From the NCBI RefSeq assembly GCF_041146345.1, contig NW_027191405.1, positions 1,550,001 to 1,614,000 of the forward strand: a stretch of DNA of 64,000 bases. The letters run 5' to 3'. Positions 6,034-54,839 of this stretch are shown piece by piece. The first letter of the stretch is position 1. The number at the start of each line of letters is the position of its first letter. Below the pieces are notes generated by a model that saw only the letters and a program-made list of their open reading frames with translations, had not been told where the DNA came from and searched no databases. Source of the DNA: Neodothiora populina. Its lineage: Eukaryota. The position numbers were made by a program, and so were the translations under genes.

Positions 6034-7675
6034 TCTGCTTTGACTTGTCTGTAAAAGACAAGTTCAGTCGAACGTACAAGGCAGAGATGTAAGTGTATAG
6101 GTATTGTTCTTAGCTCCACTCGGTCACTTTAAGTTGAACCTCATATATCGAAGCCCACTATCTTGCTTAAAGCTGGCGCTTGTGACGAAAGTTCGGAGGT
6201 GGTGCTCATTCTCCGCATTTGGCTCGTCGGGCAAAACCCCTCTATCGCTGCGCCCCACCATCTTGTCCAACTCTAGCTACAGACTGGCTGTATGATATTA
6301 TTGTGTAGCACATTCTCATCACTAATGACCGCGCTTCTGCGTGCTGATGGTTATCTCACAGCATCTTCATGTTCATTTACAACCATCGACGGCAGTTTCA
6401 AGACGGTATGTCTTGCACGGAAAGCCTTGCTCTGGAGGGGTTTGCAACAGAGGTACTGTAAGTGAAGTGAGGTTAAGAGCAGCTTATATTGTTGGCTCTT
6501 GCTACCGGTAGGCAGAAGTAGCCTTCAGAGACGCGCTGCCTGCGTTGTTGCTCCCTTGTTGAAATGTACACCTTACCACCTGTAGAATTGGCTCTACTGT
6601 GCCAGGTCATACCCACCTTAGCGGTCGTTCATCTACCTCTGTTGCACGATTGAAGGACGATTGTGTCAGAGGTTCTATCACCCTCTGGCGGCCAACTTAT
6701 TCAGAGATTCCAAATCTTCTGGTCCACTATCACGCAGCAGGCACATTCCGTACAGATGTGCATTGATACACGAAGTCGTCGTTGATAGTGACCACAGCAC
6801 TGCTGATACCACATGTCTGGTGCAGACTTCCTTGCGGGACCCATCTGGGATACGAATACCACAGCTCAGGAAACAACAACACTGATAATTCTTCAATAGT
6901 TTGAGTCTATGGCGATGAGGATAACAGGAATTGCCAATGTTATGAGGTTATGCGGATGTAGTAGTACCCCATGAAACAAAGGATCTGCCAACAATGCTGG
7001 AATCCAGCCGTGGTCATTCCAACCGTGTCGACGCACCTATATCGATTATCTGCAAGAAAAACTGAGTCAAAATACAAATCAAGCGACCGTGGCAATTAGG
7101 CGACCTGATCCTGTAGGCTGCCCTAAACGACTTTGCACGTATGAGATCCTCACTTGCGGGTTGGTCTTTGCCCACCTTTACCACCTACGCAATGAATATA
7201 CACCCTAGCCCTTGTCGATGAGCTGCGTTCAGTAGCAACTTGGATCTCGCGCAGTATTGACACGAGCTGTCTGCAAGTTCTGTAAGTGGCGCCTCGTGTA
7301 GATATGTCAGGTTAGCCTCATTTCTGCACATATATTCGGCAATCCAAAGCGGCAAGTTGTAAGTCCATATCGATCCTCGGGAAGGCTGAATGGTCATTCC
7401 TGATCATACAGCTCTGGTAAGCATGATTTTCTATAATGTCTAACGTGTACTTCATTTGCAAAAGAAACACAGTTTGGAACCCGCTTCATGCCGACCCCGC
7501 GTTTCCCCACCTTTTCCCCCAGATCAACCCGCTTGTCTACATGCATACTGAACGAATATCCATAAACTGTAGATCGCAAGCGACGTCCGTATATGATGGT
7601 CATGTATAAATACATCGCAGCGTTTTCAGCCATGGACGAGATCAATTGCACTCGCAGTGACATTGATCCTACGCC

Positions 7676-22525: not shown

Positions 22526-23947
22526 ACCTCTTGATCAGATGTCTTGTTCATGAGACAATACTTCCTAAGTTCTAAATTGCATAGCGAGATATGAGGCGTT
22601 CTTTCTTCCTTGTTAATTTGCATAGCGATGGCGATGGATGATCTACTTGTTGACTTTATTACTAGCGAATGGTGTATGCTTTTAGAGATGCAGCTTTTCG
22701 GGACAGGAGTATCGTATATAGGGCAAGGGCCAAGGTGGATACTACAGCAGGTAGGTAGTTGTAAGTAAGGTACCCTACTGTACCGTATGCAACGGTCGGA
22801 TCTCGATAAGAACTTTAAATTGTGTAAACAGACCGACACGTCTTCTCGCGAACACAATGAAATGAGCTATCTGGGATATGAACAAATTCGCACCCGCTGC
22901 TACCTAATTACTGAGATATCCAGTAAGAGTTGTAAGTCTGCACTAATTCCAGTGATCATTCTCCCACCGGTCAGTGCATTGATAATATCACAAGGTGCAC
23001 TTCGATTGAGACCCCAAAAGGTACGTGCGTCATGTCAAGAAGGGCCCATGAGTCGCAAAAACAACACCAACAATGGCCCCTGAAAGCATGCACGTTTGCA
23101 TTTTATGCGGCCGATGCAGCCAATGCAGGTAGCCGTCTCCATTCCCACAGTGTGTTCAGGTTCCCTTCCAGAAGCCGAACGTGCAGCAGCTTTGCCTTGC
23201 TGTGCTGTGCAGTCACTACGAGCCGCCAGTCCAATCGTGTCGTTTTGTCCCCGTTGTTTCGTTCGTTCGTTCCGTGCCTTGTTTTTATCTTAAATTCCCT
23301 CCTCTATATCGTCTTCGGAAGCTAAACCCAGCGTCGTGCAGCCTCATCATACTTGTATATCATCATTGTCCGAGTTCCCACGCAACCAACCCATTTGCTT
23401 TCTGTAAATCACCGCCTAGATGACTCGTCTCGGCCCAGTCTTGCCTTTCATTTGTCCAATGTGTTACTACTCTGTTCTCGTGTATTCCTGCTGATCCTGA
23501 CTCTGTTTAATTTCCCGAGCCCTCGGTCTAAAATAACTTGTACCAAAGCTTCGGAGGCACTTGTCGACTCGCCCGCGCACCACTTTACTCAATCCGTACT
23601 CTATTACTACTGGACCCCTTGACTTGTGCAGTTCTGACAGAGGACGAGGACCAGGACGAGGACCAGTCCTGTGCATCGACAGCATCTGAGCGAGTCCAGA
23701 GTTCGCTCATTGCTGTTTGGTGCCGATCAAAGGTATAGCTCTTGAATACCATCTCCATTCTCCAATGCCCAAAGACCACCGCGGTGTTACTGCTGTCGCT
23801 GCTGTCACGGACACGGCCACGGACACGGCCACGGTCACGCCTGCAGCTGTTGTAGCAATTCTTGCGTACATGCTAGGACCAGCCATGCTGACTTGAGTCT
23901 TTCTTTTTCCTGCCACGATAGGTCAAGTCGACACGACGAACTCCACC

Positions 23948-26900
23948 GTGTCGCCCTCACTTCCGCCCACTGCTACGCCGCCCCGTACAGAGACAAGTAA
24001 ACCCAGGAACTATGTCAGTACTCTAACGAGCTCGCCTGCTCAATCTCTCTGGACTGCTCCCACCGGCAAGAGATCCGAAGACTCGTATTACGCCTCTTCC
24101 CCGAGTCCCGCACGACGACACTCGGTACGAGACCACGCACACTTGCAGCCTCGATTCACCGTCGACACTCCCTCGACCGGTCCCGCCAACTCTGTGAGAG
24201 ACGGTCTCTCAGAAGACGCCAACACCTACTACACCGCCAGCTGGGGATCGCCCTACCCTCTTGCTTCCAGAGAAGCCTTACTCGATTCCTCTGCCCGCCT
24301 CATCGCAGAACAAGCCAGGACAAGACCTCCCGGCAGTGGCAGCGAGAGTCCCACAGATATACCCCCATTTGGATTGGACTATTTACTACCCTCACGCATT
24401 CCCACACACAGTCGGGACGTCACTCCTCTTTTTGGTTTAGAGCATTTGATACCCTCACGTCTTCCTTTACAGCAATCACACCTTAATCAAGCCTTCCGGG
24501 AATCTCTTCCGTCACCAAGAGAGCCCTCCCTGCAGCCTGCAGACCTAACACCGGTCAGACACCAGGTCACGCGTAGCCTGACCGAGGATTGGGTCTACCA
24601 ATACACATCCGGTCATTGGCGTTCTGAACGGGGCAATTGGCTGAGCGACGAATCTGCTGGAAGCGACACTTCGTCAGAAAAGAGCGAGGACTTCAAGACA
24701 CCGATCCCATTCACTTGGTTCTCTGGACGTCATAGACGTCGGAATTCAACCTCGGTCGATAGTCCCTCATTGACTCGTATTGGCATCCGACGACCGTCCT
24801 CAAAGCACAGTAGTCAGACTACCGATAGCTTCAGGAGGCACAAGAGCAGGCAAAGCAACGTGACATTGAAACAGGAGGACTTTTGGAATATCACGAAACA
24901 GGACGAGTCCAAAGCAGAAGGCGATATGTCGCTCTTCGAAAGTAGATGGGCTGCTGATACAGCAAAGCAAACGCAAGAGGAAGACAACAAAGAGAACTTC
25001 GATCACAGTATGACGAGTAATTCGACACCGGCTTCTGCAGACCAGACCTCGGCCATGCGAGCGGCTGAAAAGCCACAGGTCCTCATGCAGAGGCCTGAAA
25101 GTGTAACCCAAATTGCCCACATAGACAAACCGCTGCCTCCTCCACCTCCTCCTGAGGAGGCCGAAGACGGTGTTGGGGTTTCCGATAAGGGTGTCTCAGA
25201 CAAAATATCCCATCCACCAGTCCCCAAAGATGCATTGTCGGTACCGCTGCCACGACAAAGAACAAAACTGAGTTGGAAGGGCAAAGCTTGTTGGGTTGGA
25301 TTGCCCGAGACTGGCCCCGATGCTTACGGTCGACCTATACCAATGACGGCCAGACAGGTAGACGAGCGAATCAAACGTTTCCAGGACGCCGGGTATAGCA
25401 CTCGAGGCTTCGATGTTGAGGGTTATTGGTCTGGCGGTGCTGTTTCGCAGAGCCGAACAATGTATCCTGATCCTTCCGACGATGCCGTGGCAAGACAGGA
25501 GAGACAATTTCAGGTTCGCGTGCCGAACCCAAGACTCTGGAAGGAGTACATGGACCAGCAAATCGAAGCAAAGCTTGCAGCTTTGGGCGTCAGTCTCGGT
25601 GAAGAGCCTGCCCCCGCGCCACCTCCTATGTCACGACAAGCGTCTGGTCATTTTCCAGGGAGGATCTCACCGAACAATATCGCCGCATCAATCGCTGCTG
25701 GCTCGCATCGGTCGACTCCATCGCTTGCTCATTTCAGCACCGCCGGCCATTCTCACTCCGCATCTGTAGCCTCACCTCTCTCGATGGGAGGCCCACCTGG
25801 ACATATGCAAAGACATTCTGTGTTCGGTATGCCGTTTGGCTTCCCTCAGCAACAGACGGGCCATTCTGGCCTACCTGCCTCCACCCCAGGCCAACATTTC
25901 AATATGAGTGGCATCTCGCGCGGCGAGTCGCCAGCCCTGGAGAGACTGAGATCGGACAGCGTAGGTCCCCTCAAATCACCGCACTCCCCGTTCACGGGTA
26001 TTCCACCATTTGGCATGTCCAAGAGTCCGCAGATGAATCCCGAAATGGTGAATGTGCCACCTCATCTGAGGCATCAATCTGTTTACTCAAGTTTCTCGCC
26101 TCAGCCTTCGATTACGCCTGGGATCCGACCTCAAGCTGTGCTTCCGGAATTGCGCGAGGACGAAGAGGAGCAGGTTCCAGATTATTTCGCCGGTGTCATG
26201 CCCGAGTCTCGTCAACCAGAGATTGCGCAGCCGAGTCCTCGTGGACGTGGTCACAGCCACAATATCAGCGAAGGTCTTGAAAAGGACATACAAGAAGCAG
26301 AGTACCACTTGGAAAGGTCGATCGAGCGCGAGATGAACGAAAGCGAAATCCATCCAAGATTTGGCGACAGCACTCGATCACAAGCGAAGCAAGCACAACA
26401 GGCATATGTTCCTCCAGGTAAGCGTGCTAGTCTGGGTATGAACGGTCAGATCGAGCGAACTCCTTCGGCGCCGCGTTTGCCATCCGAGGGACTGACTGGT
26501 GCAGGCTACGGAGCCCCCGGGCAGAACAACATGGTCAAGCCTAGAGGTCATGGATCTAAGCTCAGTGTCGCTGCGCCAGAGTTCAGGTTCCAACCTGGTG
26601 CATTCCCGCAGACTTTCGCTCCCGCTAGCTTTGCGCCTACGCCTGAGGAAACTCTGGAAGATGTTCACGTCCAAGTACCGAATCTGCCGCCAAACGGATT
26701 CGGTGGATTCGGCGGCACTACTTTGCCGTCTTCCAACTTCGATTTCTCGTCTTCTGTAACGCATATGCCCCCTGTCATCCCTGAGCCGACACAAACCGAA
26801 GCGCAGTTTCCTAGCATCTTTGGCAATGTTAGCATGTCCGATATGGTCAAGCCTGCCAAGAGATCCAAGGCTGTCGCTATAAAGGCTCCTAGTACCCCTG

Positions 26901-29900
26901 CAGAGCCTGAGAAGGCAGAGAAAGAGGACGAGAACGGCCGTCTGTTGCCGAGTGATGATCGGCAGAAGAGAGCACGCACTCAGCGTGCAGCTGGCAACGA
27001 TGTACCATTGTTTGCCGTACCGCCGAAGTCGACTGAACGCAGACCGTCACCAGTGATGCCTGTACCGGAAGAGCTCAAGTTGGGTGACAATTCATCGCCT
27101 GATGACGATAAGATTGCAGCGCCTGTTGTGCATCCCAAGCAAGATATCAGATCAAACTATAAAAACACAACCTCGAACGGTCTCGAGACTCTGCCAGAGG
27201 GACCTCACCGAGAGGAGCATGAGCGGAAAACTTCGAGTCATTACGGCCACACAAAGAACTCCAGTTCGCTGTCTGCATTGGCCAAACCATTCGAGTTCAA
27301 ACCGGGCACTACCCCTACATTCTCACCTCATGCGCAATCTCGAGCACGAAGCCCTGGCGCTTTGGAGAGCAAGCCTGACTTGAGTCCGGCCCGTGTCTTC
27401 TCACAAAACCGTGGCGCCAGCAACAACCACAAGGCTGTGGAAAGTCTGTCTTACAATACCTCCCCAGAGCCTCATAAATCATCGTACCCTCTACCCCCAC
27501 GTCCCCAAATTCAATTTCCCGAGCCTACCTTTGATGAGATCGATGCTGTCATGCAGCAACTCAACGATGATTCGGAACAGTCGCATACTTTTGCGAATGA
27601 GCACATCCGTACCGGCACGCCGGGATTGGACTCCAGTGTGGTGGTGCATCATCCTGGGATCAAGCATATGCGTCATGATGCGATCAGTCCGACTCCTGAT
27701 CAGGATCCTTTCCACAGACGCAGGGATGAGCCAGACTCTCCTCCCCCGCGACAGAGCTTCCCTGCTGAGCGACTCGAAATGCCGTCTGGTCCGTCTATAA
27801 ATTGTCTCAACCGCGGAGAGGACGTGCCCATGAGTGAATGGTCAGACGACTTGGACTTGGATGAAGACCGGGTCCAGACTCGTAGCAGGTTCTTTGATGA
27901 CAGGATAGACTCTATTGTCGGCAACATATTGCAAGATCGCCTCCAGCCGTTGGAGAAGAGCCTGCAGCAGATACACAGAGCGATCAGTACGAGATCCATC
28001 CGGGACAGGTCCAGGCCTGCTACTGGCCGGACAACTTCTGCCGTAGAAAGCGACGCCGACGATGAGGACGATCTACCGGCTGAACATCCTCCTTTCCGAC
28101 CTCTGTCTAGCAGCAACGACAAACGCGCCCAGCAAGTCAAGGCTGCTGTGCTCGAAGCCTTCGCCATCCAAGAGGCGAACACTGTGCACAAGACGCCCGG
28201 TCTATCTTCTGCGTTGGAGATCCACCATGCACTCATGGACATGAACACGACCATCGCTCGCATCGCTGGCGCTCACCTTGATGTTGACGACGTCAAGGCT
28301 ATCGTCGAGGATGCTCTGCACCGACACAGCCGCGCCTTGGTTCCTGCGGGTTCGAAACGTGGCTCGCCAAACCCCGAGGCCGAGCGCAACCATAAGCGTG
28401 CAATCACTGAGCTAGAAGGCCGCTTCAATGAAACCTTGGCTGGCAAGTTAGAGGAAGCGAACCAACGCCGTCTCATTGAAGAGCGGGAAGCCGATACTCG
28501 GAGACTTCTTCGTCTGGCTGAGGAGGAGCTTCAACTTCTGCGCGCGACCACTAGCGACCAGGACCAGAGGATATCCTCACTGCAGAGAGAATTCCAGCTA
28601 TCACTCGATCGTGCCGAGGAGGCAGAGAGTGCTAAGAGGGAGGTTGAGGCAGCAAAGAGAGAGACCGAGGCAGCCAAGCAGGATCTCGAGAAGCAGCTCT
28701 CTGATGTTGAAGCGGAGAACTCCGCATTCGAGTCTACCTTGGAGGAGTATCGCCTGTCGAGCAACAAGTGGAGGCAAGAAGTCGATGATCTGAACAGCGA
28801 GAATGAAAGCCTGAAAGGCACTGTCAATGACTTGAGAGCCCAGATTGCGGACGGCCTCAACATCCGCGAGAACATGCGTGGCAAACTCGACAAGATTCAT
28901 GCTGACATGGCTGATGCTGCCGAGCAACTGGCCACGGAGAAGTCGTCCTGGCAAAGGCGCAATGAAGACCTTCAGAAGAAGGGCATCATCTTCCAGGCCC
29001 GTCTTGAGGGTGAGATCAGCGTTCGTCGCAGCTTGGAGGAAGAGATCCAAAGCTTGAGGATTCAGGTCCACGAGGGCGTTGCCTCGAAGATTCACCTTGA
29101 GCAAGCGCTCCGCTCAAACGCAGCACAAGAGGATATCATCAACACGCTCAAGGCTGATTTGGCCGCTGAACAGACCCTTGTCGCACGTATTGAGCGCGAC
29201 CTACACGAAGCTAGAGAGTCTGGCCGCGCTGAGGTTCAGCGTACGCAGATGATCATGGAATCGAACATCGAGGCAGCGAACGGTCAAGCCGCGATCATAC
29301 GTTCCAGCCTGGAACACGAGCTCCACTTAGCCAAGAATGCGATCGATGATCTGAGAATGCACGCGGATACAGCAAAGGCACGCCATGAGCTCTTGCTCGA
29401 AGAAGAGGCAGATCTCCGACGTGATGCTCTTCGTAGGGTCAATGAAACCAGCAGCGCCACTTTGAACGAGCTTCGCGAGAAGCACGAGAATGCTCTACGA
29501 TACATGAAGGTTCAACATGAAAAAGAACTCACAAACGCTCTACAAGACAAGCAACGTGACGAGGAGTACTACCAGAGCCGCCTGAACCTCTCGGACGATC
29601 AAGTCACGCATCTGCAAGAAAGAGTGAGCCACCTCGAGGAAAGACTACAGGTCGCTCAATCAGCCGCCAAGGCGGCAGCCAGACAAGCTCAAGCTGCGAA
29701 GAATGCAATGCCTGTGCCACAAGCGCCGATTTCGCAAGCTGCACTCGATTCGGCAAAGACATCGAATGAGCCAGAGAGGGTCTCTCCACAGGCGTTGAGG
29801 GAGTCCATCCTCGTCCTGCAAGAGCAATTGCAGGAACGTGAGACCAGAATCGAGTCTTTGCAGGGGCAGATCAACAGCCTCGATACGACAGCACCTGCCA

Positions 29901-31225
29901 AACTGAAGGAGCGCGACACGGAGATTACATGGCTGCGTGAGCTTCTGGCCGTGAGAAACGAGGACCTCTCTGAGCTGATCCGTCAGCTTGAGAAGGACGG
30001 TTTCGATCGCGAGGCTGTACGTGACTATGCCATTAGGATCCGTGCAGGCATCCAGATGGAACAGGCAGAGAAGGAACGGCTCATCTCTGCAGGCACCAGC
30101 AAGGCTGCTCAAGCGGTCGCAGGGCTAGTCAATGTCGCCTCACCGGGTGCAGCAAGACTTGCATCCGCATGGGGCAATTGGAGGAAGGGAAGAACCGAGT
30201 CCAGCTCTAGCTCGCGTGCTGCAGCTCCAGCTCCAGCGTCCTCGGCGCCGTCGGCAAGTAGAACAAGCAGAGCTCTCGGTAAAGCACCATCGTCTGCGCC
30301 TATTCTGCGAGCACAGTCACAAGCTCTTCGCCCACGCTCCACAGACAGACGTGCTGCTACTCCCTCAAAGCCAAACGCTCCCTCGGCTCTTTCTAGCTCG
30401 GGCATCTTTGCCGGACTGATGACGCCTCCGGCGTCGAACTTGCGACGCACGCCATCTCCGGACCCATCCTCATCTTCAGCAGCGATGGGTGCAGCACCAA
30501 TGGAAGTAGAGATGTCGGGTACGATGATGCCCCAGTACCAGCAGGGAACCGTCAATCCAGCATTCACTCAAGCCCCACCACCTGGATTTGGACCCCGGAA
30601 GTCCAGTCCTCTGAGCCAGACGGACGACTCGGCGCCAGGCCTGTTCGGCGGCTCGGGCTACGACAGCGATGCCGAGGTTGGCCCTGTGCCCGAGGGTAGT
30701 CTCGGAGGCGACGATGATGTGCTTGGAGGTGGAGACGAAGACGATGATGACGACGATTTGCTGAACGAAGCTGATGTTGGACGGGGTGTTCTGGGCGCTG
30801 TGTCGCCTAAGGCTGGAGAGGACGAAGACGAGGAGGAGAAGAAGAGGGAGGAGGAGGTAGAGGTCAAGGCAGAGGCGCAGCAAGATCACCACCAAGACCA
30901 GCATCGCCAAGACCAGCATCAGCATCGGCATCAGCAGCAGGAACAACAAGTCAAAGCAGAAGAGGAAGAGGACAAAGACTCGCAAGAGGGCCCCTCAGCC
31001 AGCGGCGACAACTACACCTACAACAACGGCATCAACGGCAGCAGCGGCTACGAAATCGAACGTCACGGTCAGCAACAAGACAACATGAACGGGAGGCCTG
31101 GAGACGAGGACGGAGACGAAGACGACGACGAAGACGACGACGACGATGATGGAAACAGCATGTGCATGAACATGGCCGAGGAGACGCTGGGTCGTAGTCT
31201 GGCTGCTGAATTGGAGAACCTGTAG
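23948..31225 (+). CDS. Very large low-complexity/coiled-coil protein (type often labelled 'myosin class II heavy chain' in fungi, but no motor domain seen)
   Basis: 2425-codon open frame with a heptad-rich region at ~28380-30090 and an acidic tail. True start uncertain: splice acceptor at ~23921, possible ATG at 23765. Confidence 0.85.
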   Translation: MSPSLPPTATPPRTETSKPRNYVSTLTSSPAQSLWTAPTGKRSEDSYYASSPSPARRHSVRDHAHLQPRFTVDTPSTGPANSVRDGLSEDANTYYTASWGSPYPLASREALLDSSARLIAEQARTRPPGSGSESPTDIPPFGLDYLLPSRIPTHSRDVTPLFGLEHLIPSRLPLQQSHLNQAFRESLPSPREPSLQPADLTPVRHQVTRSLTEDWVYQYTSGHWRSERGNWLSDESAGSDTSSEKSEDFKTPIPFTWFSGRHRRRNSTSVDSPSLTRIGIRRPSSKHSSQTTDSFRRHKSRQSNVTLKQEDFWNITKQDESKAEGDMSLFESRWAADTAKQTQEEDNKENFDHSMTSNSTPASADQTSAMRAAEKPQVLMQRPESVTQIAHIDKPLPPPPPPEEAEDGVGVSDKGVSDKISHPPVPKDALSVPLPRQRTKLSWKGKACWVGLPETGPDAYGRPIPMTARQVDERIKRFQDAGYSTRGFDVEGYWSGGAVSQSRTMYPDPSDDAVARQERQFQVRVPNPRLWKEYMDQQIEAKLAALGVSLGEEPAPAPPPMSRQASGHFPGRISPNNIAASIAAGSHRSTPSLAHFSTAGHSHSASVASPLSMGGPPGHMQRHSVFGMPFGFPQQQTGHSGLPASTPGQHFNMSGISRGESPALERLRSDSVGPLKSPHSPFTGIPPFGMSKSPQMNPEMVNVPPHLRHQSVYSSFSPQPSITPGIRPQAVLPELREDEEEQVPDYFAGVMPESRQPEIAQPSPRGRGHSHNISEGLEKDIQEAEYHLERSIEREMNESEIHPRFGDSTRSQAKQAQQAYVPPGKRASLGMNGQIERTPSAPRLPSEGLTGAGYGAPGQNNMVKPRGHGSKLSVAAPEFRFQPGAFPQTFAPASFAPTPEETLEDVHVQVPNLPPNGFGGFGGTTLPSSNFDFSSSVTHMPPVIPEPTQTEAQFPSIFGNVSMSDMVKPAKRSKAVAIKAPSTPAEPEKAEKEDENGRLLPSDDRQKRARTQRAAGNDVPLFAVPPKSTERRPSPVMPVPEELKLGDNSSPDDDKIAAPVVHPKQDIRSNYKNTTSNGLETLPEGPHREEHERKTSSHYGHTKNSSSLSALAKPFEFKPGTTPTFSPHAQSRARSPGALESKPDLSPARVFSQNRGASNNHKAVESLSYNTSPEPHKSSYPLPPRPQIQFPEPTFDEIDAVMQQLNDDSEQSHTFANEHIRTGTPGLDSSVVVHHPGIKHMRHDAISPTPDQDPFHRRRDEPDSPPPRQSFPAERLEMPSGPSINCLNRGEDVPMSEWSDDLDLDEDRVQTRSRFFDDRIDSIVGNILQDRLQPLEKSLQQIHRAISTRSIRDRSRPATGRTTSAVESDADDEDDLPAEHPPFRPLSSSNDKRAQQVKAAVLEAFAIQEANTVHKTPGLSSALEIHHALMDMNTTIARIAGAHLDVDDVKAIVEDALHRHSRALVPAGSKRGSPNPEAERNHKRAITELEGRFNETLAGKLEEANQRRLIEEREADTRRLLRLAEEELQLLRATTSDQDQRISSLQREFQLSLDRAEEAESAKREVEAAKRETEAAKQDLEKQLSDVEAENSAFESTLEEYRLSSNKWRQEVDDLNSENESLKGTVNDLRAQIADGLNIRENMRGKLDKIHADMADAAEQLATEKSSWQRRNEDLQKKGIIFQARLEGEISVRRSLEEEIQSLRIQVHEGVASKIHLEQALRSNAAQEDIINTLKADLAAEQTLVARIERDLHEARESGRAEVQRTQMIMESNIEAANGQAAIIRSSLEHELHLAKNAIDDLRMHADTAKARHELLLEEEADLRRDALRRVNETSSATLNELREKHENALRYMKVQHEKELTNALQDKQRDEEYYQSRLNLSDDQVTHLQERVSHLEERLQVAQSAAKAAARQAQAAKNAMPVPQAPISQAALDSAKTSNEPERVSPQALRESILVLQEQLQERETRIESLQGQINSLDTTAPAKLKERDTEITWLRELLAVRNEDLSELIRQLEKDGFDREAVRDYAIRIRAGIQMEQAEKERLISAGTSKAAQAVAGLVNVASPGAARLASAWGNWRKGRTESSSSSRAAAPAPASSAPSASRTSRALGKAPSSAPILRAQSQALRPRSTDRRAATPSKPNAPSALSSSGIFAGLMTPPASNLRRTPSPDPSSSSAAMGAAPMEVEMSGTMMPQYQQGTVNPAFTQAPPPGFGPRKSSPLSQTDDSAPGLFGGSGYDSDAEVGPVPEGSLGGDDDVLGGGDEDDDDDDLLNEADVGRGVLGAVSPKAGEDEDEEEKKREEEVEVKAEAQQDHHQDQHRQDQHQHRHQQQEQQVKAEEEEDKDSQEGPSASGDNYTYNNGINGSSGYEIERHGQQQDNMNGRPGDEDGDEDDDEDDDDDDGNSMCMNMAEETLGRSLAAELENL

Positions 31226-50127: not shown

Positions 50128-51964
50128 ATGCCGGGCAGAATCGCCTCTAAGAGCCCATATTATATCTTGAGTGTGGTGTATGTACCTAAATTCGGCGAGA
50201 CACAAGAGCCTGCAAAAGCTAACCCATATAGTTGCTCGGCGATGTTCTTAGATCTGTGTAACCTGAGCGCCATCACAATCGCTTTACCAACCATTCGCAA
50301 TGAATTCAATGTTGCTGCGGGTGATCTGCAATGGGTCATTTCAGCATATGCTCTTACAGTAAGAGACTCGCCACACGGGAATAAAGTATCCGATGTAGTA
50401 ATCATGAAAACGACAGTTCGGTGGCTTCTTGCTTTTGGGTGGACGGGGTGGAGATATGTTTGGGTAACGATGACAATAGATGGTATACTTCTGCTGCACA
50501 GCTGATACACAGACAGTCATCGCCGAGTCTTGATCTTTGGGATTTGCCTGTTCACTTTGTTTAGTCTTATCTGTGCACTTGCACCTACATTTGTTGGTCT
50601 TGTTGTTGCGAGAGCGTTTCAAGGCATCGGTGCTGCCTTTACGATACCGTCCGCCCAGGCTCACATTGCACTGCACTTTCCGAGTCCAGCTCAGAAGGCA
50701 AAAGCGTTGGGTCTTTGGGGTGCTTCGGGGTCTCTAGGTTTTATGTAAGTCATTCGTCACGATCGAACCCTGCGGGATTAATCTGTGAGAAAGCCTCGGC
50801 CTGGTTCTTGGAGGTGTTCTTACCAATTTCCTGGGATGGCGGTGGATTTTCTGGATCAGCCTCATCCTCTCCGGCATTGTATTACTTGCAGCTCTTCTGA
50901 TGCTTCCTCATCGCCCAGCAGCCCCCTCCTCCGATCGTAACGGCAACGAGGACGCCAACGAGGAGGTGCAGCGTCCGAAGAAGTTCGTGCACTCCCTTCG
51001 TGAACGACTGATTCGATTTGACATTGTAGGTATCGCAATTGGACTACCTGGCATTCTTCTATTGACGTATGCTTTCACGACGGCAAATTCGGTCGGATGG
51101 CACACGACCCGAATTATCGTCACTTTTGTACTTGCGGCAGCTCTTCTGACCATCTTCGCTTCTCACGAGCGAAATGCTTCTCAAGCAATTCTGGCACCAC
51201 ACCTTTTCAGATCGCCATCGTTCGATTTGGCGCTCGTACTTGCAGTCAACACTTATGCAGTGCGACAGGGATGTACCTATTTCCTCACGGTACAGCTACA
51301 GTCCTACGGCAACAGTCCCATCTATACCTCTGTTCTGTACATTCCGCTCGGTATCAGCGCATTGGTCACCAATACTTCTGCCGGTCGATTGGTTCCTATT
51401 TTGGGCGCTCGATTCATGTTCATCGTTGGCTGGGCTCTAGCTATACCGGGCGTTCTCTTGTTCGCTTTTATCACTGAACATACCTCGTATTGGCGCTTCA
51501 CATTTCCTGGCATGATCCTATATATTGCTGGTATCGGGGCAGTCTACATCACATCCAAACTCGTGGTTGTTTCATCGGCCTCGAAGAGTGACCAAGGTGC
51601 TGCAGCTGGGGTGTTCAACGTCGCCCTGCAGGTTGGTGGGTCGGTTGTTGGACTCGCAGTCCTGACAGCAGTGGGTCAGGAAATCGAGAAGAAGTACGGA
51701 GACGCAAGCCTTCCTTCTGGCACACTCAGCCATGTTGGGTATGAGAGCATCTACTTCAGTTGCGTCATACTCTGTGGTATAGGCTTGCTGATTAGCGTAT
51801 TTGCGATCAAGGTCCCTGATAGCATGCGTGGTAGCTATTGGCACAAGCCTGGGCAAGGTGCAACACAAGCTGTGCCAGAGACGTCGCCGGCGGGTCTGGC
51901 GGAGGGGGATGAAGTGGAACTTGTAGTTATGAACGGCAACAGCACTGCGATCCCGAGGAGCTGA
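50128..51964 (+). CDS. MFS transporter, 14-TMS DHA2-like drug/H+ antiporter
   Basis: AMFLDLCNLSAITIALPTI, LQWVISAYALT|FGGFLLLGGRGGDMFG|HRR, ARAFQGIGAAFTIPSA, QGAAAGVFNVALQVGGSVVGLA. About 4 introns. Start codon approximate. Confidence 0.88.
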
Positions 51965-52990
51965 TGTCGGGCATCCCATCACGCTTTGGTTGAGCAAGGG
52001 TCCCTGTAGAAGTCGAGGCAATTCCGAAAGATGATAGCACTGATTACTGCGACTTCGCCGTATGCCTGAATTGAAGCCTCATATCGAACCGGTCAGAGTA
52101 CAAGTACGTCGATAATGTCAAGAAGAACCGTAGGCGGGACATGGATACATAAGGTAAGGTGAGGTACCTTGAGAAAGGTACAAAGTCCGGCAGATGTACC
52201 AACGAAGGTCAAAGTGAACCTAAGCAATGGTACGTACTGTATGTATTGAACTCTCGACCGAGATTCATGAGATGTGGTGAAACTCATGAGGCTCGACAGT
52301 GAGAGTTGAGCTTGCCAAGATAGAGGCATCCCACGAGAGGTGCAATAGATTGAATCACAATATAGGCACGCGAGTGTCTGCCTGACAAAAGCATCCTTGA
52401 AGCTGTAGAGAAGTCATTTTATACAACCTTGCAGCTTGAGGTCCTGTCTCGCAAATCTCAGGTAGCTTTGAGATGGTGTAGAGAGACAAGTTGATCCAGA
52501 GGTCAAAGCAGACCGGCACGAGGCAACGAAGGGTGGAATTGATCACAAGTATACACGAGTAAGCTTTGGTAATCCGGGCTTATACAGCAGCGTCAGCGTG
52601 TGTTTTTAGTGGGCGTTGCGCAGAGCCCGATTCGCACATGCCACATACCGGCATCTTGTCAGTGCTAAGCAGCAGCAGAAGCAGTGGCAGCAACAGTGCA
52701 GAGTATCGACAGCAGCAGCAGTAGCAGTAGTAGCAGTTACTAGTAGCAGAAGCAGCAGTCCATCTCCAATCCATCACTTACCTTATAGTGCATCGACAAA
52801 ATACTTTGCATACATACAGCACATCATCCATCCAACCCTTTCCCCGTGCTTCCCATCCCACTTCTTATATACACATTCACACACGCACAAAACTCTCTCA
52901 CTGCGCCGTTGCTGCAGCTCCACCGCCGAGTTGCACCAACCCCTCCATAATTCTCTTTTACCAAGAAGTCAACCATCAACACCGCTCAAC

Positions 52991-53593
52991 GTGGCTTCAC
53001 ACACATTACGCTCACCATCCTATCACATTCAGTCAAGGACCCTGAGCTATTTCGAGCAGCAGATCGCGCCCGACAGACAAGCGCTGCAGGATTGGGCCAC
53101 AAAGGTTCCACGACCACGCGAGGAACCCCCTCAACGATATCGATTCGTTGCGCAACTCATCACCGCCATCAAAGCCACCCAGACCAGCAAGACTCTTGGC
53201 CAGTGGCTCCGCGTTCTCTGTCAACATCACACCGAACTTCACTTTGCACCTGTCGCCGACCTCGCGAAACCATCGCCCGCCGAAGCACCAGCCGTCGCCG
53301 CACTCGTCGCCCAGCAACGGTGCATCCCCTGGGTAGAGAAGCTCATCCAAGCACGCTACAGCGAAGAGAAACAAGCCGAAGCGGAGTTCCGTTCTAGAGT
53401 GCGCGAACTACTCTCGCTTCCAGAACCTTCAGCGTTCGATCAAAAGACCAGTCTAGCGCACGAAAAAAGACCGAGAGTCGAGTTCGAGAAGAACGACAGC
53501 GAGTCATCAGCCCTTGCAGAGTCGGAAAGGAAGAAGAGGAAGCTCGTCGAAAGTCAGTGGGCAGATCAATTAATCAACCATGTCGTCCAGTAG
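52991..53593 (+). other. Candidate non-AUG (GUG)-initiated ORF overlapping the CKB1 start codon
   Basis: Part of a 325-codon stop-free frame with no Met. In-frame GTG at 52991 in CTCAAC-GTG-GCT context. The stop lies inside the CKB1 CDS (ends at 53593). Confidence 0.45.
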
Positions 53594-54839
53594 TCAGGTT
53601 GCCGAATCATGGATCTCGGCCTTCTGTGGCCTGGTTGGCCATGAGTATTTTGCCGAAGTCAGCGAAGACTTTATCGAGGACGATTTCAACCTGACCGGCC
53701 TGCAATCTCAAGTGCCCATGTACAAGGAGGCGCTGGAGATGATCCTGGACGTGGAACCCGAAGACGATGACATTTCTGACGAAGACGATGACGATGACGA
53801 CCGCAGCGACGACATGGAACCGTCGTATCATGACCCTTATGTTTCGCGGCGCGAAGAGCGCCGCCACTTGCGCATGGCCTCAGACCTGTCCGTGATCGAG
53901 TCGTCCGCGGAGATGCTGTACGGCCTTATACACCAGCGCTTCATTACTTCACGCCAGGGTATTCAGCAAATGGCAGAGAAATACGAAATGGGCCACTTTG
54001 GCTTCTGTCCACGAGTCTTCTGCGGCAGTGCCAAGGTGCTCCCTGTCGGCTGCTCTGACATTCCCGGGCAGGAGACGGTGAAGCTGTTCTGTCCCAGCTG
54101 CCTCGACGTCTACACCCCGCCAAACTCGCGATTCCAGTCCGTCGACGGCGCGTTTTTTGGCACAACCTTCGGCTGCCTCTTTTTCATGACCTTTCCTGAA
54201 CTCGATGTCGGTGGTCAGAAGATTGTCGTCTCTACGCCTAGCCTGGCTGACCAGCAACCACTGGAATCGTCGAGACGCAGATCCTCACTTACATCGTCCG
54301 TGTCGAACAACACTGCGACACCCACGGCCGCGTCAAATACTTCACATCATCACGGTCACCATAAGGAGAAGACTCTACCCCCACAACCTTCATCTATCAA
54401 CGGAATGGCTTCTCACAACCTCGCACCAGGCCTAGGCAGCGGCAACATTTACGAACCACGCATCTATGGATTCCGAGTCTCTGAATTTGCCAAATCGGGG
54501 CCGCGAATGAAGTGGTTGCGAATGCGACCGGCTGATATCAACGAGCTGAACGAGGTAGCAATCTGGGAGCAAGTGCGGGCATACTCAGAGCAGCAGCCTG
54601 ATGCCAGCAGTGGTCCGTCGGCAGCAACGGACTCTACAGCGGCGGGTGGGAAAGAAGGCGATGGCAGCGAGGACATGGACGTTCTGGACGAAGAGGAAGA
54701 TCCAGAAGAAGGTTCGTTAGAGAATGCAGACGAGCAAGCGCTGGCAGGCGGCGCGTCGGCCTCGAACGGTAGCAGGAGAGCAGCGGGCGGTAGGAGGAGA
54801 GTGGGCGATGACATAGAAGGTGGAGGAGCAAGAGTCTGA
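53580..54839 (+). CDS. CKB1: Casein kinase II regulatory subunit beta (Ckb1 type)
   Basis: [48 protein letters not shown]...[12 protein letters not shown] zinc finger, [20 protein letters not shown]. Confidence 0.96.

Follow-up and report, generated by a model that had tools for sequence, protein, structure and literature searches.

The CKB1 genes of many filamentous ascomycetes, which encode the beta subunit of the kinase CK2, are shown by comparison to carry what appears to be a CUG- or GUG-initiated N-terminal extension under purifying selection. This conserved extension is the firmest result of the analysis. The gene studied here, in a 64,000-nt stretch of the genome of Neodothiora populina (hereafter the window), is an unusual variant, with the near-cognate frame out of register with the CKB1 AUG in this assembly (by its offset and by a TAA at 53571). 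The reading that we favor for the window, with moderate confidence and from features of the sequence, is that this frame would be a genuine upstream ORF, overlapping CKB1 on an mRNA that codes for two proteins through leaky scanning. We put forward more tentatively a fuller proposal: an unreported, selected CUG or GUG start ties CK2-beta isoforms to start-codon stringency, and the extension has split off here as a 200-aa nuclear protein made from the same mRNA. If true, fission of a non-AUG extension would here have given rise to a dual-coding transcript in a fungus.

The in-frame extension of CKB1 in relatives

We scanned metagenome contigs for relatives of CKB1 and kept the best 80 of the 143 recovered; 43 loci remained after near-duplicates and loci with less than 390 nt of upstream sequence were dropped. 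Across the 43, the opening in frame with CKB1 ahead of its AUG has a median length of 56 codons, versus 22 and 24 in the other two frames (Wilcoxon p 0.007). A strong-context CTG or GTG lies in frame at 25 of the 43 loci, versus 2 and 1 in the other frames, by a filter (purine at -3, then GC, TC or GA) chosen after the data had been viewed. In many relatives this AUG-free, in-frame region encodes conserved peptides, and the same peptides occur at the N-termini of many among 120 proteins listed. From the near-cognate codon to the AUG, dN/dS was 0.25, 0.04, 0.25 and 0.18 in four clades (21 of the best 80 loci, from the Cladosporium clade, the Aureobasidium clade and two further clades) in frame 0 only; the shifted frames gave 1.0-1.9, and the 150 nt farther upstream gave 0.75-1.14. 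Within the extensions, each of the 27 pairwise gaps is a multiple of three in length, against 154 of 217 gaps just upstream that are not, the pairs being non-independent. The leucine of a [KT]LA motif is encoded by CTG in 11 of 11 loci, versus 17 of 74 other leucines, a comparison in which the codon was picked by its peptide motif and the loci are partly related. The excess of in-frame CTG and GTG codons, with purifying selection extending to that codon, suggests a CUG- or GUG-initiated extension of CKB1 in these relatives, 17-84 codons long in those analysed.

The extension is not universal: in-frame openings are short in L023 and L025, sister to the window's clade, and in many members of the clade L037-L052. 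In the Cladosporium clade, leaders are ATG-free for 619-892 nt, and several non-coding blocks are common to L002-L005, L007, L009, L013 and L014. A conserved LSAAFEKACxIxEVALD-like motif, possibly a binding or phosphorylation element, ends the extension in Cladosporium and Mycosphaerellales (L013, L017, L018, L021, L022, L024 and L059) and is found also at the N-termini of proteins P0013-P0119. A hidden Markov model of this motif ('LSAAFEKAC..EVALD', 51 sequences) matched neither the window's frames nor the extensions of other clades; its match to P0010 is circular. A short AUG-initiated uORF recurs in L023, L025, L065, L006, L010 and L011, at about 250-330 nt before the ATG of CKB1. It reads Met-Glu-stop in L023 and L025 and has 4-10 codons in Aureobasidium; it is absent from the Cladosporium clade and from the window. 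In many relatives' loci, the last upstream ATG is 220-380 nt from that of CKB1.

A non-AUG start on fungal CKB1 is provisionally new: the literature searched, which left most subscription papers outside it, holds no report of one. CKB1 is not mentioned in the available portions of two further papers (PMC5487733, PMC7049704), nor is an isoform or start codon in those of two papers on fungal CK2 (PMC11381320, PMC8878131).

The ATG-free frame and the 200-codon ORF in the window

CKB1 of the window (53580..54839, + strand) is an intronless CDS whose product, of 419 residues, matches PF01214 (E 2e-66) and groups with named fungal CK2-beta proteins, two findings that identify it as CK2-beta. A quick tree of 104 proteins places it in a clade with Delphinella, Dothideomycetes NU459 and Aureobasidium (SH-aLRT 96). 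The gene now lies between an MFS transporter and ATP10. In most relatives checked, a Zn2Cys6 transcription-factor gene is directly upstream of CKB1; here it is about 58 kb upstream, and the rearrangement can be seen in regions L101:3057-5598 (G000:C14:1543057-1545598) and L101:7656-8547. At the position that CKB1 occupies in relatives, L101 has a small ORF of about 70 codons on the minus strand (~6450-6680) before a likely intron, flanked by the transcription-factor gene and the next gene.

The earlier note on this DNA had drawn attention to a long, Met-free frame that overlaps the start of CKB1, and its description of the letters holds throughout. The frame runs stop to stop from 52610 to 53593 on the + strand (327 codons plus TAG, or 325 from TTG 52616), and its stop, TAG 53591..53593, reaches 14 nt into CKB1 in another frame. 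No ATG occurs in any of the three + frames from 52641 to 53579. The consecutive + ATGs, at 52638 and 53580, are separated by 942 nt, the longest such gap on either strand of the window and second in 464 kb of the contig on both strands (956, 942, 914 and 866 nt). Dinucleotide shuffles of 52641-53579 (n=2000) had a mean of 6.3 ATGs, with a probability of 0.0005 for none and likewise 0.0005 for a fully open frame. The last upstream ATG begins a 28-codon ORF (52638..52724, +) that is probably either upstream of the transcript start or within a possible leader intron. One candidate intron, 52559-52678, has the donor GTAAGC at 52559, a weak CTAAG branch and CAG at 52675 or 52678; its removal would excise ATG 52638.

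Other long gaps are known from the same contig. One of 914 nt (24012-24926) lies inside a 2442-codon frame of the window (23897-31225, +), the first 343 codons of which are Met-free. Toward its 5' end is a signal resembling a branch site and acceptor, which points to a spliced gene, or alternatively this could be a second non-AUG case; a search for an in-phase ATG exon established none, and the part from the first Met has no match in Pfam. Two more gaps lie in the flanking contig G000:C14, 956 nt near window-relative position -78023 (+) and 866 nt near 128915 (-).

A periodic fourth-order coding model, trained with 84 long ORFs that lie in 400 kb of flanking sequence of the same genome, divides the open frame in two. 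Its 5' 127 codons (52610-52990) score -0.13 per codon and are non-coding-like, which limits the coding-like ORF to the last 200 codons instead of all 325. The part from GTG 52991 (52991..53593, +) scores 0.135 per codon, near the 0.163 of CKB1 itself. A 510-nt core scores 0.175, a value that ranks at the 78th percentile among 214 held-out gene segments and was attained by one of 29 alternate-frame and one of 52 antisense stop-free frames. Over 52991-53572, the ORF's frame scores 0.152 and the others -0.03 and 0.00; none of 1000 dinucleotide shuffles reached that score, and 10 reached the same frame contrast. The cumulative signal is lowest at 52976, with a near-equal minimum at 53030, and climbs from there to 53550-53570, so that the onset falls where the GTG of best context is found; the codon model is unable to decide between starts at 52991 and 53033. 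GC at the three codon positions is 0.64/0.44/0.59, compared with 0.58/0.46/0.58 in genes. The lack of ATG is itself unusual for coding sequence: among 321 windows of 589 nt from this genome's training CDSs, which hold 9.6 ATGs on average, none is ATG-free, the 914-nt gap in frame 23897-31225 being an exception outside that set.

The proposed GUG start (52991..52993, +), in the context CTCAAC-GTG-GC, has A at -3, G at +4 and C at +5. Among 56 near-cognate codons between 52865 and 53577, it ranks first by a context matrix from the same genome, a noisy one built from first ATGs, and third by a second matrix built from relatives' starts; among the 12 CTG and GTG codons, it ranks first by both. A TATA-like TTATATA (52865..52871, +), a putative element, is present where the earlier note had pointed to one. 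Just ahead of it is a motif, CATCCCACTT (52854..52863, +), common to the CKB1 upstream regions of related Dothideomycetidae. The form ATCCCACTT begins at 52855, 724 nt upstream of the CKB1 AUG, and 9 of 17 Dothideomycetidae CKB1 loci have it 300-900 nt ahead of theirs; it is expected about 0.01 times per 1300 nt and has 5 copies in 464 kb. CATCCCACTT may thus mark an ancestral promoter or leader region. CKB1 has parted from its usual neighbor yet retained the motif, which suggests that the ORF lies within that ancestral leader region. The motif is close to the start, 135 nt from GTG 52991 as compared with 350-550 nt in six relatives, and transcription could therefore begin downstream of the GTG.

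The predicted product is a helical protein of 200 residues without known homologs. Its best match in Pfam, at E 0.04, is below the cut-off. Searches found no homolog among 490 proteins of near length, 3446 longer candidates, or 1.84 billion representatives at E 0.001, and no match in 35 stretches of viral contigs; the protein is absent from an exact-sequence collection, and protein and DNA searches of its own genome returned only the ORF itself. A tblastn search of the best 80 of the 143 CKB1 loci gave a best E of 0.015, outside the leader, and when the protein was aligned pairwise to 239 leader frames, all matches were of low complexity, with top raw scores of 43-53. The ESM Atlas returned clusters of helical repeats at 0.90-0.92 that have few features in common with the protein, which serve as a lead only, and a recognition score of 1401, under the 2300 mark of known families. 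Single-sequence AlphaFold models are helical but unconfident (pLDDT 45.5 and 43.7). Near the C-terminus is RKKRKL (53528..53545, +), which we take to be a putative nuclear localisation signal; KKRK or five basic residues occur in 11 of 179 200-aa windows from the same genome. As a guess, the protein could bind or modulate CK2 in the nucleus as a helical partner, which would suit an extension that had been freed from the subunit.

The mechanism that we propose for the overlapping ORF begins with a CKB1 transcript whose 5' end would lie upstream of 52991, giving it a long leader. A minority of scanning ribosomes would start at the strong-context GUG and make a separate, helical and possibly nuclear protein of 200 residues, halting 11 nt after the CKB1 AUG; in Neurospora, GUG starts are said to capture a few percent of ribosomes. 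Most ribosomes would bypass the GUG by leaky scanning and, with no AUG in the next 590 nt, go on to start CK2-beta. The GUG would be this lineage's counterpart of the CUG or GUG that opens the in-frame CK2-beta extension in many filamentous ascomycetes, the extension frame having been lengthened and shifted out of register. Since that frame is out of register, near-cognate initiation would give a free protein and draw ribosomes from CK2-beta rather than lengthen it, and the ratio of products would track the start-codon stringency set by eIF1 and eIF5.

The junction and competing interpretations

The earlier note had suggested that leaky near-cognate initiation makes a second protein. What stands of this is the strong-context GUG, the ATG-free leader and 200 coding-like codons in the window, and in relatives a near-cognate codon that is kept, in frame. 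The conserved frame in relatives that the note itself had proposed as a check did not turn up: the best 80 of the 143 CKB1 loci contain no homolog of the window's ORF, and the leaders of 41 relatives contain no coding-like out-of-frame ORF, their selected near-cognate frames being in frame with CKB1. The note had also taken a TAA shortly before the CKB1 ATG to exclude an N-terminal extension. The TAA is present (53571-53573), but relatives do extend in frame, and the exclusion rests on nine bases of one assembly.

Those nine bases are the junction (53571..53579, +), which begins with the TAA in the CKB1 frame, includes the TCAACC context of the ATG, and is the sole place where a one-base difference would set ORF and CKB1 in register. 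There, a single wrong base count in the assembly, or an indel private to the strain, could hide a fused protein that starts at the same GUG, with an extension of about 197 residues and a CK2-beta isoform of about 616 residues beside the 419-aa form. We hold this to be a serious but clearly less probable alternative to the overlapping ORF. In-frame extension is the state of relatives (25 of 43 loci), Aureobasidium included, and is present in protein records from the window's own clade (P0007, P0010), while the split form is found in no relative. The coding signal continues to 53550-53570, and the ATG depletion and the context of the GUG fit a fusion equally well. Against it, the error would have to be confined to nine bases with no homopolymer and no run longer than two, and the relatives' extensions span 17-84 codons in the loci analysed. 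The absence of any longer protein with this sequence among the 3446 candidates adds weak evidence. Two contigs from run X1, probably DNA, match 404 nt of the region (51683-51859 and 52870-53096) without a difference, the junction lying outside them.

A scan of 464 kb for switches of frame also speaks for a real split. It returned 20 candidates, of which eight have strict intron signals and one is the CKB1 junction. Judged by eye, with uncertain sensitivity, the other 11 show no clear indel-type break: they are intron-like, have one frame open throughout, or seem to be antisense to a gene. A relaxed intron finder has no power to discriminate, as it responds at 150 of 300 random places. Two further observations favor a real split: the 2442-codon frame elsewhere in the window is intact, and in the frame of the upstream ORF, a stop occurs within 14 nt of the CKB1 start in 3 of 43 relatives (median 98 nt).

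It is improbable, in our judgment, that the region is simply a non-coding leader purged of ATGs, its open frame and coding score being products of composition. Leaders in the Cladosporium clade are likewise ATG-free, over 619-817 nt, and unconserved stop-free frames of 173-205 codons occur in other leaders (L011, L003, L015, L025) with scores near zero, so the length of the ORF proves little by itself. The long frame of L025 is disrupted by 1-nt indels in its sister L023, which rules out an ORF that had seemed common to the two. The blank homolog searches and the low Atlas score also suit a non-coding leader. The coding score does not: none of the 1000 shuffles attains it, nor do any of 41 relatives' CKB1 leaders, four of which reach the frame contrast, two of them (L023, L025) without a known coding frame. 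The onset of the signal at the best-context GTG and the gene-like GC by codon position likewise argue against composition.

An ordinary spliced orphan gene, with CKB1 on its own short leader, is quite unlikely. Its ATG would be 52227 (or 52062 or 52115), joined through a 0.8-0.9 kb intron to CAG 53032. Donors GTACGT and GTATGT do follow ATG 52227 (52227..52244, +) in phase with CAG 53030-53032, a weak CTCAC branch is present, and the codon model is equally content with a start at 52991 or 53033. However, no canonical CTRAY branch site occurs between 52382 and 53691, and the donors are about 265 nt past the MFS stop, in a TATGTA-rich stretch that presumably belongs to a 3' end. An intron of 0.8 kb is about ten times the usual fungal length. 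Splicing would leave unexplained both an ATG-free coding region (0 of 321 windows) and the shared motif, which would sit in the intron.

Least probable of all is a joining of the two frames by recoding or splicing: a programmed +1 shift in 53574-53593, ahead of the TAG, would fuse them, but at GTC GTC CAG TAG we know of no +1 tRNA re-pairing and no established shift site that matches, and an intron from GTGCGC 53399 to CAG 53597, in phase and with a TTAAT branch, has a weak donor and would delete coding-like sequence and the conserved MSSSSQ start.

Significance and comparison with known systems

Work on CK2, a central kinase, has in fungi dealt with heterochromatin (Neurospora) and appressorium formation (rice blast). 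A selected CUG or GUG extension of CK2-beta across several classes of molds would be missed by standard annotations, and expression constructs begun at the AUG would be without it. Should the junction prove to be an indel, the conserved extension of relatives is unaffected; if the split is real, the window offers a candidate for a dual-coding mRNA in a fungus, one that encodes an orphan protein of full size, and shows how a non-AUG extension can turn into a separate gene. CK2 phosphorylates eIF5, with an effect on start-codon stringency that a review calls open (PMC12045569), and a near-cognate CKB1 start may therefore form a feedback loop. Such a start makes a CK2-eIF5 loop directly testable.

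For the relatives, the closest model is cpc-1 of Neurospora and other Pezizomycotina, described in the accessible part of PMC5487733 as having a near-cognate-initiated N-terminal extension, a long leader and a strong context of A at -3 and G at +4. Relatives' CKB1, in the same subphylum, resembles it in conserved, strong-context near-cognate codons upstream of the main AUG, and has an in-frame opening, a strong-context CTG or GTG in 25 of 43 loci, and purifying selection up to it. By the same partial account, cpc-1 has several near-cognate codons and two AUG uORFs, whereas the CKB1 loci have one CTG or GTG; in the window, unlike cpc-1, the near-cognate frame is out of register and has its own stop. 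Plant CK2-beta, as far as the excerpt of PMC3137599 goes, also bears an added N-terminal segment, of about 90 residues, which in maize lowers holoenzyme activity and stabilises the subunit. It might by analogy be a model for a fungal long isoform, although the plant extension belongs to the standard protein and the fungal one would need near-cognate initiation.

The arrangement AUG-N8-UAG at the junction resembles termination-reinitiation signals of the form AUG-nx-stop with x = 2, 5, 8 or 14 (PMC5972666, seen in part). A spacing of 8 is also a consequence of how the two frames relate, CK2-beta needs no more than leaky scanning, and UGGGA (TURBS motif 1) is absent from 53301-53600, which places the junction outside the TURBS type.

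For the window, the nearest parallel is human POLG/POLGARF, where, according to the portion of PMC10742948 available, a near-cognate codon in strong context opens a long out-of-frame ORF for a protein of about 25 kDa and POLG is made by ribosomes leaking past. The window likewise has a strong-context near-cognate codon opening a long out-of-frame ORF (200 aa) that overlaps the main start. The ORF has a gene-like codon signature, and homolog searches for its product were blank. POLGARF, on the same partial evidence, begins 53 nt ahead of the main AUG, has an extensive overlap, is conserved and depends on a stem-loop. The window's ORF differs in being nearly all upstream, with a 14-nt overlap, no known homolog and no strong hairpin after GTG 52991 (-9.8 kcal/mol over 60 nt).
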